Source: Prevotella sp. (GTDB lineage Bacteria > Bacillota > Clostridia > Lachnospirales > Lachnospiraceae). Taken from it: 63,962 nucleotides of DNA. Below, piece after piece: positions 9,411 to 38,853 of the stretch. A model generated the notes under the pieces. It was not told where the DNA came from. It searched no databases and saw only the letters and a list, made by a program, of their open reading frames with translations. Location of the stretch: contig CAVEKJ010000001.1 in assembly GCA_963616205.1 (NCBI GenBank), forward strand, positions 1 to 63,962, given 5' to 3'. Position 1 is the first letter of the stretch. Each line of letters begins with the position of its first letter. The position numbers and the translations under genes were made by a program.

Positions 9411-12287
9411 TTGGTGAATATTTTGGATAAAGAGGAGTTTCGCGTTAAACTGGGACAGATCAACAAGCTGGTCGAAGCCCAGGATTACAAAGGCGCCATG
9501 CAGATCGTTGACAGCATCGACTGGCGTCGGGTGAAGAACGTCCGTACCCTTTGTGTAGTGGGCGAGATCTACGCGGCCAACAAGCGCTATGAAGAGAGCA
9601 AGGAAATTTTTCTTCTTGCCTATCACAGAGCGCCGATCGGCAAGAACATACTTTACCGCCTGATCGAAGTTTCCCTGAGGATGGGACAGATCAGTGAAGC
9701 CACAGAATTCTTTGATGAATACAGAGAAGTGGCAGGTAATGATAACAGCCAGTATATACTGAAATATAAGATCGCCAGAGCGAAGAATGCATCTCTGAAC
9801 GAACAGATCCGTATTCTTGAGGAATATAAGGAGAAGGAATTTACGGAGCGCTGGTCCTATGAACTGGCCAAGCTCTATTACAAGGCAGGAGACAAGCAGA
9901 AATGCCTGGATCTCTGCAATGAGATGATCCTTTGGTTCAATGACGGAACTTATGTGATGAAGGCCCTTGACCTGAAACAGCGGATGGGTGTCCTCACTGG
10001 CGAAGAAAAAGAGAAATACGAGCAGCGTTTTATCCCGAAACTGATCCCGCCGGAAAAGGCGCAGGAGATCAAGGAGAGCAAGGAAGCGGAAACATCCGGT
10101 GAACCTGAGTATGAGGAAGCAAAACCGGTCACAGATACCATCCAGGTAGATGATGAACGTGATCTGAACAGTGCGGAGACATTCCAGGAGAAGCTTTCCA
10201 AGGGATTCCGTGATATCTTTGGCGGACATAAGAAATCCGCAGAAGAAGCAGAGGAAAAAGAAGCTGCACAGGATGAAGAAGTGGAAGAGGATTCCACAGG
10301 ATCTGAGGATGTGACGGAAGAGACTGAGGTGGAAACACCGGAAGCTGAGACTGCTGCCGCAGCAGAACCGTCAGAATGGCATGCAGACGAAGACGCTGAG
10401 GAAATTGAAGATACAGAGGGAAGTTCTGAAAGTGCTGACGAAATTTCAGAAGATCAGGAAGAACTTTCTGAGCAGGCAGAGGATGAGATTCCGCTGGCAG
10501 CAGGTATTGATAACCTGACATCCGGAAGTGTGAAGCTTGAGGCCAGGACACAGGAACAGCAGGACGAAGAGGAAGAAGAAGCTTATCAGGAGGCAGAAGA
10601 AGCCGAGGCTGAGAAGGCTACAGAGATGTCTTTATCTCAGAGCGTTGCTGAGATCATGAAAGAGAAGGCTGCCGGAAATGAGGAGAAACCTGCAGGGGTT
10701 CCGCTCAATGAGGATGGCAAGCCTGATTTTTCCGCGACGATCCGTATGCCGGAGCTGAAGATCCCGAAATCTATGATCAATGTGGACCCGGAGAATGCAA
10801 GCAGTTCGGCAGACATCCCGGATGCGTCCGGAATCTTCGGAAGTATCGATGATATCGCCGCAACCGTCGGCAAAAAATCCGAGGATGATAAAGCAAAAGA
10901 TTTTAATCTGGAGGATACGATCCTGGCTGCTGCCACAGAGCAGGGAATCGATATCCCAGAGACAGAAGATACACAGCCGGAAACAGCTGAAGATGAGATC
11001 GAAGATCTTGGCATCGCATCGGATGATTTTGTTCCGGAGGAGCCGGATGCGGCGGATATCGAGGATATCATGGCGCAGATCTCCGCTCAGCAGGCAGAGG
11101 ATGAGCCTAATCCGGCCCAGACAAAGATCCCGGATATCGTATTTGATGAAGATGAGGAGCCGGTGACAGAAGAAGATCTTCGTGCTGCAGAGGCGGAGTT
11201 CCTGAATGGTCCTGCGGGGGCACAGAAACCGGTGGAAGAACCGGCAGCAGAAGAAAAAGCGCCGGAGGTTCCGACACTGGAAAAAGAGGAACAGGCTACT
11301 GTGATCGAAGATGAAATTCTTCTTGACGAGGAAGAAGAATACAGCGGTGAGGACTTCGGATTCCAGGATGATGAGGATGAGGACGAAGATGCCCTTATTT
11401 CAGATCTTCTGGGGGATGAACCGGAAGAAGCGGGCATGGAAGAGGATGATGAAGAGGAAGAACTCAGCGAGGAAGAGCAGCTTGAGAAATTCATTGCTAC
11501 CATCCAGCCGGAGAAAGATCCCACAAAGATCGTTTCCAGGAAAAAACAGCTCACAGATGAAGAGAAGCAGCTTTTCACCTATTTTGTTGCTGTTCCGGGA
11601 ATGAAAGAGCAGCTGCTCGATGTTCTCTGCGATGTGCAGAAGGGCGCGGCAGACAAGACTTCCCAGACCGGAAATGTGATCGTTATGGGAGGCAGAGAAA
11701 CCGGTAAGACAAGACTGATATCCAGTCTGATCCCGGCGATCTGTAAAGAGCTGAATATCGAGGCTTCCAAGGTTGCCTATATATTTGCGGAGGATCTCAA
11801 CGGAAAAGATATCGCAGAGATCGCATCCAAGCTTGCAGGCGGTTTCCTTGTTATCGAGAACGCAAACCAGCTTTCCCAGGAAACAGCAGATGAGCTTGAG
11901 GAAGTTATGAATGGAAACACGAAGGGAATGATCGTGATCCTGGAGGACGAAAAGATCGGTATGCGTAAGCTGATCGCAAGATATCCGAAGCTTGCGAAGA
12001 AGTTTACATCTATGATCAACATTCCTGTATTTACAAACGATGAGCTTGTTAATTTCGCCAAAGTCTACACCATGGAGAATGGATTCCGTATCGACCAGAT
12101 GGGCATGCTTGCTCTGTATAATCTGATCGGAGTCAACCAGAAAGAGGACCAGCCGATGTGCATCGGTACTGTGAAAGTCATGCTGGATAAAGCTATGGAG
12201 AGAGCTCAGGGCGGATTATTCAAACGTTCCAAGAAGCGTGTGGACCGTGATGGTTACACTGTACTTCTGGAAAAGGATTTCAGCTGA
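9411..12287 (+). CDS. Large hypothetical protein: N-terminal TPR-like helices, very acidic low-complexity middle, C-terminal degenerate AAA+/P-loop domain
   Basis: 958-aa ORF; helical repeats aa ~1-200; E/D-rich aa ~220-700; GNVIVMGGRETGKTRL and GGFLVIENA in the C-terminus. Confidence 0.75.
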   Translation: MVNILDKEEFRVKLGQINKLVEAQDYKGAMQIVDSIDWRRVKNVRTLCVVGEIYAANKRYEESKEIFLLAYHRAPIGKNILYRLIEVSLRMGQISEATEFFDEYREVAGNDNSQYILKYKIARAKNASLNEQIRILEEYKEKEFTERWSYELAKLYYKAGDKQKCLDLCNEMILWFNDGTYVMKALDLKQRMGVLTGEEKEKYEQRFIPKLIPPEKAQEIKESKEAETSGEPEYEEAKPVTDTIQVDDERDLNSAETFQEKLSKGFRDIFGGHKKSAEEAEEKEAAQDEEVEEDSTGSEDVTEETEVETPEAETAAAAEPSEWHADEDAEEIEDTEGSSESADEISEDQEELSEQAEDEIPLAAGIDNLTSGSVKLEARTQEQQDEEEEEAYQEAEEAEAEKATEMSLSQSVAEIMKEKAAGNEEKPAGVPLNEDGKPDFSATIRMPELKIPKSMINVDPENASSSADIPDASGIFGSIDDIAATVGKKSEDDKAKDFNLEDTILAAATEQGIDIPETEDTQPETAEDEIEDLGIASDDFVPEEPDAADIEDIMAQISAQQAEDEPNPAQTKIPDIVFDEDEEPVTEEDLRAAEAEFLNGPAGAQKPVEEPAAEEKAPEVPTLEKEEQATVIEDEILLDEEEEYSGEDFGFQDDEDEDEDALISDLLGDEPEEAGMEEDDEEEELSEEEQLEKFIATIQPEKDPTKIVSRKKQLTDEEKQLFTYFVAVPGMKEQLLDVLCDVQKGAADKTSQTGNVIVMGGRETGKTRLISSLIPAICKELNIEASKVAYIFAEDLNGKDIAEIASKLAGGFLVIENANQLSQETADELEEVMNGNTKGMIVILEDEKIGMRKLIARYPKLAKKFTSMINIPVFTNDELVNFAKVYTMENGFRIDQMGMLALYNLIGVNQKEDQPMCIGTVKVMLDKAMERAQGGLFKRSKKRVDRDGYTVLLEKDFS

Positions 12288-13594: not shown

Positions 13595-14080
13595 ATGATT
13601 TTTATGAAGAAATTTAATATGATGAATAAGTTTACTGCTCTGGTTGTTGCTGGTGTTATTTCCTGTTCTTCTCCTATGATGGTTATGGCGTCTGATTCCA
13701 GTTCTGTTATGAGTCAGGCGGAGGAGATCCTGAAGGATAATGAGGTTGGGTCTCTTGCTTCTGATCCGGATAAGGTTGGGGATATCATTGTTTATGTGAA
13801 GGGACTGTTTGATTCCAATGAGATTTCTGATGATGAGATTTCTCAGGGAATCGATGAGGCTGCGGATCATTTTGGGGTGAGTCTTAATGATGACGATAAG
13901 AAGTCACTGGTTAATATTATCAGTAAGTTCCGTGGGATTGATGTGAGTGATGATCAGATCAAGGGGTATGTGAGTGATGCTTATAGTACTTTGAAGGATA
14001 TGGGTGTTACGAAGTCTGATGTGAAGAATCTTTTTGAGAAGGCTATTGAGTTTATTAAGGGGATGCTTTCCAGACGGTAG
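13595..14080 (+). CDS. Secreted/exported protein, DUF1002 C-terminal-like
   Basis: Signal peptide MKKFN..VMA; acidic helical domain (EISDDEISQGIDEAADHFGVSLNDDDK); GGAGG RBS. Confidence 0.65.
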   Translation: MIFMKKFNMMNKFTALVVAGVISCSSPMMVMASDSSSVMSQAEEILKDNEVGSLASDPDKVGDIIVYVKGLFDSNEISDDEISQGIDEAADHFGVSLNDDDKKSLVNIISKFRGIDVSDDQIKGYVSDAYSTLKDMGVTKSDVKNLFEKAIEFIKGMLSRR

Positions 14081-14304
14081 AGTTGGTTAGTTTCTGATTT
14101 GATAAGATTGATAAGTTTTTAGATTTGTGTGTTTTGGATGTTTAGAGGGTGATTTTTGTGACGCTTTTGTTGGGGTTATTGTTGTTATGTTTATGTGAAA
14201 TGTACAATTTGTACAATATTTAGGACGATTAGATTTTGAAATAATGTGGTGTTTCTATAAAAAATGAATGATTGAATGAAGAAAATTGTGAAAATGTGCT
14301 AAAA

Positions 14305-14351
14305 GTTCACGGGACGTTCATAGTTTGTTCATATTTGTTTGGTAGTATAAA
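14305..14351 (+). promoter_or_regulatory. Three GTTCAY direct repeats with 11-bp period plus extended -10 (TGGTAGTAT); OmpR/PhoB-type activator site
   Basis: GTTCAC 14305, GTTCAT 14316, GTTCAT 14327; no consensus -35. Confidence 0.6.
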
Positions 14352-14499
14352 GACAGTTCGAAAGAACGTCTACGAAAGACGCTGTAATGGTGTGTATCTG
14401 TATCATTACACATACAATTTTTTTCATAATAATCGCCCCGGTAAGCCACTACCGGGGCACTCCTCGTTTTTTGAGCCTTTTTTGGAGGGCTCTTTTTTT
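14352..14499 (+). ncRNA. Candidate trans-acting small RNA with anti-AUG/anti-SD determinants
   Basis: Hairpins GTTC-GAAA-GAAC, GTCT..AGAC and TGTAATGGTG..TATCATTACA; single-stranded TTTTTTTCATAATAATC; hairpin GCCCCGGTA..TACCGGGGC; ACTCCTC; terminator GAGCCTTT..GAGGGCTC-T7. Confidence 0.6.
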
Positions 14500-14682
14500 G
14501 TGGGGATGGAGGGGGACGGACATCGGCGCGGGGCTGGATGTCTGGAGTGAAGGGATGTTAAAAAATTATGGCGCGGGGTGTTGGGCCATGCTATAATGGA
14601 TACGATTAAAATACGGCAGCAGACATAAAGTATTGCCGGATAGTGAATGATAATAAGATGAAGCGTGAATGGAGGTCAAGAA

Positions 14683-15588
14683 ATGGCGGAGTCTATGAAG
14701 GATTTTGAGAAGGAGCTGGAGGCTTCTTTTAAGAAGATTGATGAGGGTGATATTATCACTGGTACGGTTGTTAGTGTGGATGAGACGGGAGTTGTTCTTG
14801 ATCTTAAATATTATGCTGAGGGTTTTATTCCGGCGGAGGAGTTTTCCAGGGAACCGGGATTTAATATTAAAGAGGCGGTCCAGCCGGGGGATGAGATCCA
14901 GGCTATGGTGCTCCGCAGGGATGATGGTCAGGGGAATATTCTTCTTTCCAGGGCGGATGCTGCGGATGTGATCGCCTGGGATAAGCTGAAAGAGCTTCAG
15001 GAGTCTGGCGAGGTGCTGGATGTTGTTGTGAAGGGTATCGTTAATGGTGGTGCCATTGCTTATGTTGAGGGTGTGCGTGGGTTTATCCCGGCGTCTAAGC
15101 TGGCGCTTAATTATGTTGAGGATACGGAGGAGTATCTTAATAAGCCGCTTCAGGTGCGGGTGATTGATGTTGATAAGGAGAAGAAGAGACTGGTGCTTTC
15201 TGCGAAGGAGATTCTTCGTGAGAAGGCTGAGGAGGAGCGCAGGAATAAGATCTCCAATATTGAGGTTGGTTTTGTGACTGAGGGTACGGTTGAGAGTTTG
15301 CAGCCGTATGGTGCTTTTGTGGATCTTGGGAATGGTGTTTCCGGGCTGGTGCATATTTCTCAGATCTGTGAGAAACGAATTAAAAAGCCTTCTGAGGCTG
15401 TCAGTGTTGGTGATAAGGTTAAAGTGAAGGTTATTGCGATCAAGGATGGTAAGCTGAGCCTGAGTATCAAGGAGGCGTCGGATCTGATGGCGAAGGAAGT
15501 TGAGGAAGAAGTTTTTGAGCTTCCGGAGTCCGGGGAAGAGGCTACTACTTCTCTTGGTTCTCTGTTTGCGAATATCAAACTTGACTGA
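14683..15588 (+). CDS. S1 RNA-binding domain protein (short ribosomal protein S1-like, three S1 repeats)
   Basis: Three S1 repeats (GDIITGTV, GFIPASKL, YGAFVDLGNGVSGLVHISQI); GGAGG RBS before ATG 14683. Confidence 0.88.
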   Translation: MAESMKDFEKELEASFKKIDEGDIITGTVVSVDETGVVLDLKYYAEGFIPAEEFSREPGFNIKEAVQPGDEIQAMVLRRDDGQGNILLSRADAADVIAWDKLKELQESGEVLDVVVKGIVNGGAIAYVEGVRGFIPASKLALNYVEDTEEYLNKPLQVRVIDVDKEKKRLVLSAKEILREKAEEERRNKISNIEVGFVTEGTVESLQPYGAFVDLGNGVSGLVHISQICEKRIKKPSEAVSVGDKVKVKVIAIKDGKLSLSIKEASDLMAKEVEEEVFELPESGEEATTSLGSLFANIKLD

Positions 15589-37013: not shown

Positions 37014-38171
37014 ATGAAGTTAAAAACACGTATTATTGTGGGATTTGTGGCGATCATCCTGCTGCCGCTGCTTCTTTTTTCCGCCAGTCTTTACGGGTTC
37101 AGCCAGACGCAGGCGAGACATGTGCAGGAGAGCAGCAGCCAGACGGTGGATTCCAACCAGATGGTCTATGATATTTCCCTGGCGCAGTCTTCCAGCAGCC
37201 AAGTAAGGTTGATGGCTAAGGATATGATTCTGACTGCGACGATCATTCTTGTTTTTACTGCGTTGTCAGTAGGACTGTGGATTTATCGGAGTATTGCGGT
37301 TCCGCTGGTAAAGCTTAAGAAGGCCACCCAGAATATCAAAGAAGGCAATCTGGATTTTGTGCTGGATGTTGAGGGAAAGGATGAGTTTTCCCAGCTTTGC
37401 CAGGATTTTGAGGAGATGCGTAAACGGCTGAAGGAGTCTACGGAAGAGAAGATCCTGATGGATAAGGAGAACAAGGAACTGATCAGCAATATTTCTCATG
37501 ACCTGAAGACGCCGATCACTGCGGTGAAAGGTTATGTGGAGGGTATTATGGATGGTGTGGCGGATACGCCGGAGAAGATGGACCGGTATGTGCGTACCAT
37601 TTATAATAAAACCAATGAGATGGATCATCTGATCAATGAGCTGACCTTTTATTCAAAGATTGATACAAACCGTATTCCGTATACGTTCAGCAAGCTGAAT
37701 GTGGAGGATTATTTTTCCGATTGTGCAGAGGAACTTGGACTTGAGATGGAGACCAAGGGAATCGAGCTTGTGTATGCCAATTATGTGGAGAAGGATGTGC
37801 AGGTCATTGCGGATGGTGAGCAGATCCGCCGTGTGATCCATAATATTGTGAGCAATGCCATCAAGTACATGGAGAAGCCGAAAGGGATCATCCAGCTTCG
37901 TGTGAAGGATGTGGGTGATTTTATCCAGGTGGAGATCGAGGATAACGGCAAGGGTATTGCCGCCAAGGATCTGCCGTATATTTTTGACCGTTTTTACCGT
38001 ACCGATGTTTCCAGAAATTCTTCCAAGGGAGGAAGCGGCATCGGACTTTCCATTGTAAAGAAGATCATGGAGGATCATGGAGGAAAGGTCTGGGCGACAA
38101 GCCGGCTGGGTATCGGAACGATCATGTATTTTGTTCTTAGAAAATATCAGGAGGTACCGATTAATGAGTAG
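37014..38171 (+). CDS. HAMP-domain sensor histidine kinase
   Basis: Two TMs, HAMP, H-box ISHDLKTPIT, N-box NIVSNAIKY, DNGKG, FDRFYR, GSGIGL. Confidence 0.95.
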   Translation: MKLKTRIIVGFVAIILLPLLLFSASLYGFSQTQARHVQESSSQTVDSNQMVYDISLAQSSSSQVRLMAKDMILTATIILVFTALSVGLWIYRSIAVPLVKLKKATQNIKEGNLDFVLDVEGKDEFSQLCQDFEEMRKRLKESTEEKILMDKENKELISNISHDLKTPITAVKGYVEGIMDGVADTPEKMDRYVRTIYNKTNEMDHLINELTFYSKIDTNRIPYTFSKLNVEDYFSDCAEELGLEMETKGIELVYANYVEKDVQVIADGEQIRRVIHNIVSNAIKYMEKPKGIIQLRVKDVGDFIQVEIEDNGKGIAAKDLPYIFDRFYRTDVSRNSSKGGSGIGLSIVKKIMEDHGGKVWATSRLGIGTIMYFVLRKYQEVPINE

Positions 38172-38853
38172 GATTTTGATCATAGAGGATGAGGAAGCGA
38201 TTGCGGATCTTGAGAAGGATTATCTGGAGCTTTCGGGTTTTGAGGTGGAGATCGAGAACCGTGGGGATACGGGGCTTGTACGTGCCATGAAGGAGGAGTT
38301 TGATCTGATCATTCTGGATCTGATGCTTCCGGAGGTGGACGGTTTCGACATCTGCCGACAGGTCCGTGAGGAGAAAAACACGCCGATCATTATGGTTTCC
38401 GCGAAGAAGGATGATATCGACAAGATCCGGGGACTTGGACTTGGTGCAGATGATTATATGACCAAGCCGTTCAGCCCAAGTGAGCTGGTGGCGCGTGTGA
38501 AGGCGCATATGGAGCGTTATAACCGTCTGGTTGGTTCTAATGTGCATAAGAATGATGTGATCGAGATCCGTGGCATTAAGATCGATAAGACGGCCAGACG
38601 TGTGTGGGTCAATGGTGAGGAAACTACGTTTACTACCAAGGAGTTTGATCTTCTGACTTTCCTGGCTGAGAATCCTAACAGGGTTTTTACCAAAGAGGAG
38701 CTTTTCCGGGAGATCTGGGATATGGAGTCCGTGGGAGATATCGCGACAGTTACGGTGCATATCAAGAAGATCCGTGAGAAAATCGAGTTTAATACTGCCA
38801 AGCCTCAGTATATTGAGACAATCTGGGGTGTGGGGTATCGGTTTAAGGTGTGA
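38164..38853 (+). CDS. OmpR/PhoB-family response regulator
   Basis: ILIIEDE, LDLMLP, GADDYMTKPF, wHTH TVHIKKIREKIE..IETIWGVGY. Confidence 0.95.
   Translation: MSRILIIEDEEAIADLEKDYLELSGFEVEIENRGDTGLVRAMKEEFDLIILDLMLPEVDGFDICRQVREEKNTPIIMVSAKKDDIDKIRGLGLGADDYMTKPFSPSELVARVKAHMERYNRLVGSNVHKNDVIEIRGIKIDKTARRVWVNGEETTFTTKEFDLLTFLAENPNRVFTKEELFREIWDMESVGDIATVTVHIKKIREKIEFNTAKPQYIETIWGVGYRFKV

Follow-up and report, generated by a model that had tools for sequence, protein, structure and literature searches.

The window (the whole 63,962-nt stretch of DNA that was analysed) carries a small transcription-unit layout between a gene for a DUF1002 (PF06207) protein with a signal-peptide-like N-terminus (13595..14080, + strand) and a gene for an S1-domain protein (14665..15588, + strand). 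Three direct-repeat boxes with an 11-bp period (14305..14332, + strand), reading GTTCAC, GTTCAT, and GTTCAT at 14305, 14316, and 14327, form a predicted activator site of the OmpR/PhoB family, as judged from the sequence and from homologue promoters; we refer to this GTTCAY box as type A. The triple array is unique within the 2.64-Mb, 72%-complete assembly of the source genome. Ten nucleotides after the third box lies an extended −10 element, TG-N-TAGTAT (14340..14348, + strand), and promoter geometry would place the RNA start at a conserved pyrimidine-A step (14354/14355), which predicts a small RNA of ∼145 nt (14355..14499, + strand). About 20 nt 5′ of box 1, a TTGTG-centred word (window 14283-14295) recurs in most copies from the genus and in other genera, and is possibly the site for a second regulator. 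Farther upstream in the window, positions 9411-12287 encode a protein of 958 aa in which a long acidic linker joins a TPR-like N-terminal region to a P-loop-like C-terminal part; its sole Pfam match is a weak TPR_19.

On the same strand, the predicted RNA begins with a hairpin closed by a GAAA tetraloop (14356..14367), which folding and alignment show to be kept within the genus and variable elsewhere, and continues with a second hairpin (14384..14411) that exceeds most genus copies in length and is not family-wide. There follow an anti-AUG arm, U7-CAU-AAUAAUC (14418..14434), complementary to a spacer, the AUG, and A-rich codons 2-3 and unpaired in the ensemble fold; a GC-rich 9-bp hairpin with a variable loop (14435..14458); and an anti-Shine-Dalgarno (anti-SD) arm, ACUCCUC (14459..14465), which in many homologues could also serve as the upstream strand of a weak terminator stem. 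The region 14354-14499 is unusually stable (z = −4.65; 0 of 200 shuffles equally stable), and the full RNA, when folded as a single sequence, leaves the anti-SD segment unpaired only in part. The boxes, extended −10, hairpins, arms, and terminator-like stem named in an initial annotation of this DNA are all found in the window sequence at the positions given here. Its terminator stands as a hairpin and U7 tract at 14473..14499 (+ strand) but not as a family feature: this element, like most of the 5′ region, is specific to the source genome or genus. Across four public sequencing runs, only contigs of related strains matched, which could be DNA and are without strand or end information.

Homologues of the element are common among relatives. 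A DNA search matched 29 of 36 genomes of the same genus (one only by a weak 25-nt piece), and a pattern scan of named genomes returned at least 119 loci, almost all from records named Lachnospiraceae, Blautia, or similar. Among the matches listed, the closest named copies are from Blautia-type records, and records of B. luti and B. wexlerae carry copies. A separate listing of matches, with 80 named and 40 unnamed rows, has no copy named as C. phytofermentans. A first covariance model, covering the RNA core only, detected members in 51 of 100 Lachnospiraceae genomes and in none of 117 other Clostridia genomes. A broadened model detected one to eight copies each in 72 of 100 Lachnospiraceae genomes, a count that is not independent since the model was built partly from genomes on which it was scored; in four of 75 genomes from other families of the order, it gave borderline scores (E 0.018-0.048).

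The source genome holds five copies, identified by promoter matrix and architecture search: the window copy and four others, on contigs C74, C184, C261, and C292. The architecture search gave no matches in three shuffles; in the genome itself, it gave one further match, on C388, that is without U-tract and promoter and is not detected by the broadened model. The four paralogues belong to a second subtype (type B), with the layout UUUUCUUUUUCAUA-hairpin-CUCCUU behind three or four TCACA-type repeats, and type-B copies come mostly from Blautia records. Each subtype retains its own synteny. A DUF1002 protein is the commonest upstream neighbour of family loci (cluster of 67 loci), and the S1-domain protein is an inconstant downstream one (cluster of 34 loci). 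In 42 type-A loci, the convergent downstream gene encodes a short RelA_SpoT-domain protein of the small alarmone synthetase type (e.g., L006:777-1427 and L010:1688-2338), and in some of them that gene ends within 3-16 nt of the anti-SD.

In a covariance-model scan of Rfam 15, no catalogued family covered the element: the best score was 28.9 bits (threshold 88; E 0.95), no family reached its gathering threshold, and nothing matched over the element in the four paralogues and 16 homologues. We found no description of such an sRNA family in the literature searched, the scope of which excluded most subscription papers. The main text of two 2026 preprints held no relevant passage, and the motif words did not occur in the supplements of PMC8040213 other than files 7 and 8, which could hold the motif as an anonymous candidate. 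The copies thus probably constitute an undescribed, multi-copy sRNA family of the Lachnospiraceae.

The promoter is conserved independently of the RNA core. A pair of boxes lies within 160 nt upstream of 131 of the 137 distinct homologues and in none of 1857 control windows from the same loci. In the 131 promoters, the extended −10 (TG-N-TAnnAT) stands at a fixed 10 nt after the boxes, with its TG conserved at 92/95% and its T-A...T at 98/99/97%; the promoter is also present in 100 of 116 copies of another subtype. The first covariance model holds no promoter at all, and still 28 of the 31 strong new-genome matches inspected have a type-A box score >12. Among the weaker matches to this model (40 fetched of 43), 26 score >12 on either box matrix, and by eye they show the same layout in further subtypes. 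The distance from the last box to the core varies between 27 and 118 nt in the 137 distinct copies, from which it follows that the 5′ hairpins are dispensable.

For the core, it is important to separate what the search imposed from what it left free. The search pattern fixed both arms and the outer four stem pairs, so the invariance of these is no proof of their importance; the five inner pairs were free. Double changes occur in all five of these (98.3% of cells paired, 94 sequences), and the covariation score was reached by none of 500 shuffles. In a multi-subtype alignment, which was fitted to the model and leans toward it, double changes occur in 9 of 9 stem pairs. The covarying hairpin parts the anti-AUG from the anti-SD in all aligned copies, every subtype keeps a CUCC-type segment directly 3′ of the hairpin, and the SD-to-AUG spacing that the arms imply is 6-8 nt in 148 of 148 pattern-matched loci, though the pattern permitted more. 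Both the arms and the stem on which the initial annotation had built its reading are kept in homologues, with compensatory changes in the stem; together with the promoter controls, this places the layout beyond chance.

The conserved CU-rich segment could be read in another way. The DNA 3′ of it is enriched in G (60% of positions +8 to +10) and then in U (67-71% of positions +14 to +16), and a hairpin of the anti-SD with a U-tail can be drawn in 42 of 136 type-A copies (309 of 1360 shuffled tails) and in 40 of 112 type-B copies (143 of 1120 shuffled tails). Since a G-run and a U-run often follow the anti-SD, it may double as a weak terminator arm. It is possible to go further and suppose that only the U-rich anti-AUG arm pairs with mRNA, the CU segment serving mainly as the upstream half of a weak terminator stem and the GC hairpin contributing stability or protein binding, with no three-way junction. 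We consider this unlikely: conservation of the anti-SD far exceeds that of its G-run partner, the spacing from arm to arm is held at the SD-AUG distance, the CUCC-type segment directly follows the hairpin in all subtypes, and the window copy carries a separate terminator.

Two other readings fare worse. The minus strand reads GAGGAG-hairpin-AUG AAA AAA, so that an extruded hairpin would join an SD to a start codon, and in the source genome it opens a 32-codon ORF (14329..14427). The functional product could then be a short protein, such as a type I toxin, to whose gene the + strand RNA would be a cis antisense. Over the 137 homologues, however, this ORF ranges from 3 to 105 aa (7 aa or fewer in 54 of the 137), the frames are not kept, and no peptide is conserved past the first residues; the conserved promoter faces the opposite way, and the DNA 3′ of the core, where a minus-strand promoter would sit, is not conserved. 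We reject the ORF as a gene and regard this reading as the least credible of those considered.

Scarcely more credible is a role in cis, as leader or attenuator of the downstream gene, or an origin as a dispersed repeat or miniature mobile element. The S1-domain gene does follow in the same direction here and in 33 loci, and there are several copies per genome. Against this, the downstream gene runs toward the element in 52 of 92 clustered cases and in the same direction as it in 40 (crude ORF calls), which, together with the variable length of the 5′ part, counts against a leader; each subtype has its own synteny and its own activator-type promoter, and the sole pattern match on a viral contig is without the hairpin architecture. 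We conclude that the element is very probably a transcribed non-coding RNA. The initial proposal of a + strand, non-coding RNA with split anti-AUG and anti-SD arms, driven by a response regulator, is in this respect backed by the comparative evidence.

The closest known parallel is with the CiaR-dependent csRNAs, described from Streptococcus (PMC3091779; PMC8186281; PMC4507080). CiaR promoters have two hexamer repeats 11 bp apart with a −10 element 10 nt downstream (PMC3091779), the same geometry that is fixed in the 131 family promoters. Like csRNAs, the family combines anti-AUG and anti-SD segments with a variable 5′ hairpin and an anti-start-codon arm that is unpaired in the ensemble fold of the window RNA, and it occurs as several paralogues (five in the source genome, 1-8 per genome in the 72 positive family genomes). 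HtrA belongs to the CiaR regulon, and HtrA genes stand in the box regulon of the present family too. The anti-AUG word itself is also common to both. A scan for CiaR geometry with an 8-nt seed returned 120 loci, mostly from Streptococcus, and 54 of the 93 distinct CiaR-box RNAs share a 15-16-nt word with the window RNA, running through AAUAAUC, when the pattern had imposed only 8 nt. The U-tract variants of type B and of a third subtype, UUUUCUUUUUCAU and AAAACUUUUUCAU, likewise recur among the CiaR-box RNAs. The initial analogy to csRNAs is supported by this comparison.

The differences are equally clear. The family box is GTTCAY or TCACA, whereas the CiaR box is (N)TTAAG-N5-TTTAAG; a strict CiaR-promoter plus seed pattern matched 0 of 201 Lachnospiraceae genomes, and the CiaR recognition helix VVEVYVSK(V/I)RKKL is found in none of the eight OmpR-type genes in the source genome (72% complete; one helix partly masked). 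In csRNAs, the anti-SD is contiguous with the anti-AUG, whereas the family arms are parted by the covarying GC hairpin. A conserved [A/C]UCCUAAA nonamer lies 5′ of the seed in csRNAs (PMC3091779), and this UCCUAAA nonamer is absent from the window copy and the genus alignment. In the genomes searched, the family is confined to Lachnospiraceae. With the CiaR box, CiaR helix, contiguous seed, and nonamer all missing, the element is not a csRNA; by analogy, it most likely works like one.

Complementarity to A-rich starts could yield the same word twice, so that the shared word may reflect either homology or convergence. A bolder proposal, which we put forward tentatively and think more doubtful than not, is that the family shares ancestry with the csRNAs and forms, in Lachnospiraceae, the RNA arm of a Gram-positive response to extracytoplasmic stress: its paralogues, under at least two HtrA-activating OmpR-type regulators, would throttle signal-peptide mRNAs as a class through a nearly universal seed whose two arms are presented across an extruded hairpin. 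If common ancestry holds, csRNAs would be one branch of a Bacillota-wide superfamily. One locus in a Butyrivibrio MAG (L460) has CiaR-type TTTAAG boxes with a split anti-AUG/hairpin/anti-SD core, and four loci outside Streptococcus (L495, L498, L512, and L522) have CiaR-type TTTAAG boxes before csRNA-like RNAs with a contiguous seed. Under common ancestry, L460 would be an intermediate, and so would the csRNA-like RNAs with contiguous seeds in records from Enterococcus, Ruminococcaceae, and Lachnospiraceae.

We found that the boxes of the family also precede genes for HtrA-type proteases. On scanning the source genome with a type-B matrix, the top five sites are the four paralogues and an htrA gene. 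Also flagged by the matrix are a second htrA, the genes for an efflux adaptor and an ABC ATPase, and an OmpR-type regulator gene that lies divergent from one paralogue. Upstream regions of htrA score >12 on this matrix in 23 of 29 cases (one of 30 was too short), compared with three of 778 background windows. Of the 10 sites that the type-A pattern gives in five genomes of the genus, seven belong to family RNAs (five type A, two type B); the others are at an HtrA-like protease gene, at yhaM, and at one place that is probably a chance match. In a third HtrA-like family, type-A scores are bimodal, 10 of 26 loci (including the discovery locus) scoring ∼18 or above and the remaining 16, without the box, <5; in the background, four of 2612 windows score >15. 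The regulon link of the family boxes to HtrA proteases is well supported, and the shared boxes point to an envelope or secretion-stress regulon.

Several further genes carry such boxes. In one genome of the genus (L297, G002), a type-A box stands directly before yhaM, a gene of a 3′-5′ exoribonuclease family, and RNA turnover could in this way be tied to the regulon. In the source genome, boxes of the type-B kind stand before the genes for an HlyD-type efflux adaptor and an ABC ATPase, and a weaker one before a lipoprotein-like gene (C290, C22, and C339). An OmpR-type regulator divergent from a type-B RNA has box-like repeats in its own promoter (L151:4324-4563, L195:1743-2423, and L205), with weaker box sites in some of its distant orthologues.

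The third htrA has mutS2 as its neighbour, in divergent orientation in 20 of 26 loci, or follows a kinase gene directly (three of 26). Four extended loci, chosen for the adjacent kinase, show the order mutS2-regulator-kinase-htrA, with the box before htrA in two. In the source genome, a regulator of this type (C200:25-726, minus strand) adjoins mutS2 and yhaM; its yhaM is without the box, and the third htrA was not found in this 72%-complete assembly. The recognition helix of the C200-type regulator, TRTVDVHIKRLR, is close to that of RegX3, which is among its closest solved relatives. On synteny and recognition-helix likeness, the two features on which the assignment is based, we infer that this OmpR-type regulator, linked to mutS2 and htrA, is the best candidate for the activator of the window copy. 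For three other regulators of the types found in the source genome (the C200 type was not one of these), none of the 25 best NCBIfam models exceeded its cut-off. The OmpR pair at 37014-38853 of the window, suggested initially as one candidate activator, has no box in its own promoter (scores 2.1 and −0.2) and no link to the box regulon, and we set it aside.

Other regulatory systems resemble parts of this arrangement. In the CssRS secretion-stress regulon, an OmpR-type regulator activates htrA/htrB from boxes near −35 (PMC6749698, PMC6057675), and the canonical CssR box before htrA/htrB of Bacillus subtilis, TTTTCACA (PMC6749698), resembles the type-B repeats before both box-bearing htrA genes of the source genome. 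The family boxes likewise lie upstream of htrA-type proteases (type B, and type A in the 10 of 26 loci above). The type-A box of the window copy, however, reads GTTCAYA, the likeness lies in the box and the regulon, and the passages on CssRS in the two papers mention no sRNA arm (PMC6749698, PMC6057675). The PHO box of S. coelicolor, GTTCACC in 11-nt repeats (PMC4415409), is nearly identical to the type-A box, and the candidate regulator has a recognition helix similar to that of actinobacterial RegX3; the co-regulated genes here are HtrA proteases, not phosphate genes. We reject a Pho regulon, the pstS-like gene of the source genome (C3:25771, Pfam PBP_like_2) being without a box (scores −0.1 and −2.4). 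For a likeness to the HssR box of S. aureus, we found no confirming paper.

In the model we propose, an OmpR/PhoB-type regulator would bind the 11-bp-phased boxes at the −35 position and activate transcription from the extended −10. For the window copy, this regulator may be the one on C200, behind mutS2 and next to an htrA-yhaM unit; control of the four type-B paralogues may lie with a second OmpR-type regulator (C184), which appears to be autoregulated. Since these boxes also stand before genes for HtrA proteases, misfolded exported protein or envelope stress is the probable signal. The U-rich/CAU arm would cover the AUG and A-rich codons 2-3 of target mRNAs and the CUCCUC arm their SD, with the GC hairpin looped out as a three-way junction, as the complementarity and spacing suggest. 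Proteins with signal peptides typically have A-rich starts, and the main effect of the RNA would then be to reduce the output of exported proteins and lipoproteins, for example ABC solute-binding proteins, while HtrA clears those that misfold. Among enterobacteria, MicA, RybB, MicL, and CpxQ follow the same stress logic, in which a stress regulator raises periplasmic proteases as the sRNAs lower exported-protein synthesis; these sRNAs are Hfq-dependent, have gene-specific seeds, and are not known to be related in sequence to the Lachnospiraceae family.

Genes and signal peptides were called with crude scripts, and the target predictions are weak. Signal-peptide-like starts make up 10 of the top 25 cofold partners, compared with 384 of 2789 starts overall (crude gene calls), and the top predicted targets include ABC solute-binding proteins, lipoproteins, an efflux adaptor, and a D,D-carboxypeptidase. 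Pairing that extends at least 5 nt 3′ of the AUG is seen for 119 of 261 signal-peptide-like genes and 194 of 1317 others, whereas pairing with the spacer shows no export bias (three of 261 and 20 of 1317, respectively); the bias thus derives from U-tract pairing only. Long continuous matches are no commoner than chance (nine observed, 9.9 expected). For the top target, a Peripla_BP_6 gene (C4:8556-9716), the arms alone give −13.0 and −13.5 kcal/mol and the full RNA −27.4 kcal/mol, which is additive. Of 29 orthologue start regions (a thirtieth was too short), nearly all retain its GGAG..TATT-ATG, with a spacer conservation of 0.87 that two of six control genes match.

That no clearly specific target emerged would also be expected of a decoy, whose U-rich and CU-rich single strands bind an RNA chaperone, an S1-type protein, a nuclease, or another RNA instead of many mRNAs. 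Several near-redundant copies per genome fit such a role, as does the presence of S1-domain and yhaM genes among the neighbours or box-bearing genes. We nevertheless find a decoy improbable, and more so than the terminator-arm reading: the conserved letters are the exact in-register complement of SD and AUG, and the arms match the seeds of csRNAs, for which control of comC by base pairing has been demonstrated with a compensatory mutation (PMC4507080). Repression of translation initiation by pairing is the probable function of the RNA. To the mechanism as a whole, a trans-acting sRNA, activated from the boxes, pairing by two arms through a three-way junction, and belonging to an envelope-stress regulon, we assign a probability of about 0.68.

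Lachnospiraceae, such as Blautia, Roseburia, and Enterocloster, are among the dominant gut bacteria, and the present data give a concrete picture of an sRNA family in them, with its promoter motif, its candidate regulators, and the class of targets predicted for it. What is new is probably a csRNA-like RNA with a hairpin-split seed, tied to HtrA proteases by shared boxes. It would carry the csRNA principle, described as streptococcal, into another class of Bacillota and would add an unusual natural design, a seed split by a hairpin; the common purpose we propose for such RNAs is the relief of secretion stress. The source genome may also hold a related variant: on contig C17 (∼14700-14800, minus strand; L276), behind a type-B-like promoter come a hairpin, a tract rich in C and U, and a terminator-like stem, possibly a further small RNA with an anti-SD and without an anti-AUG arm.
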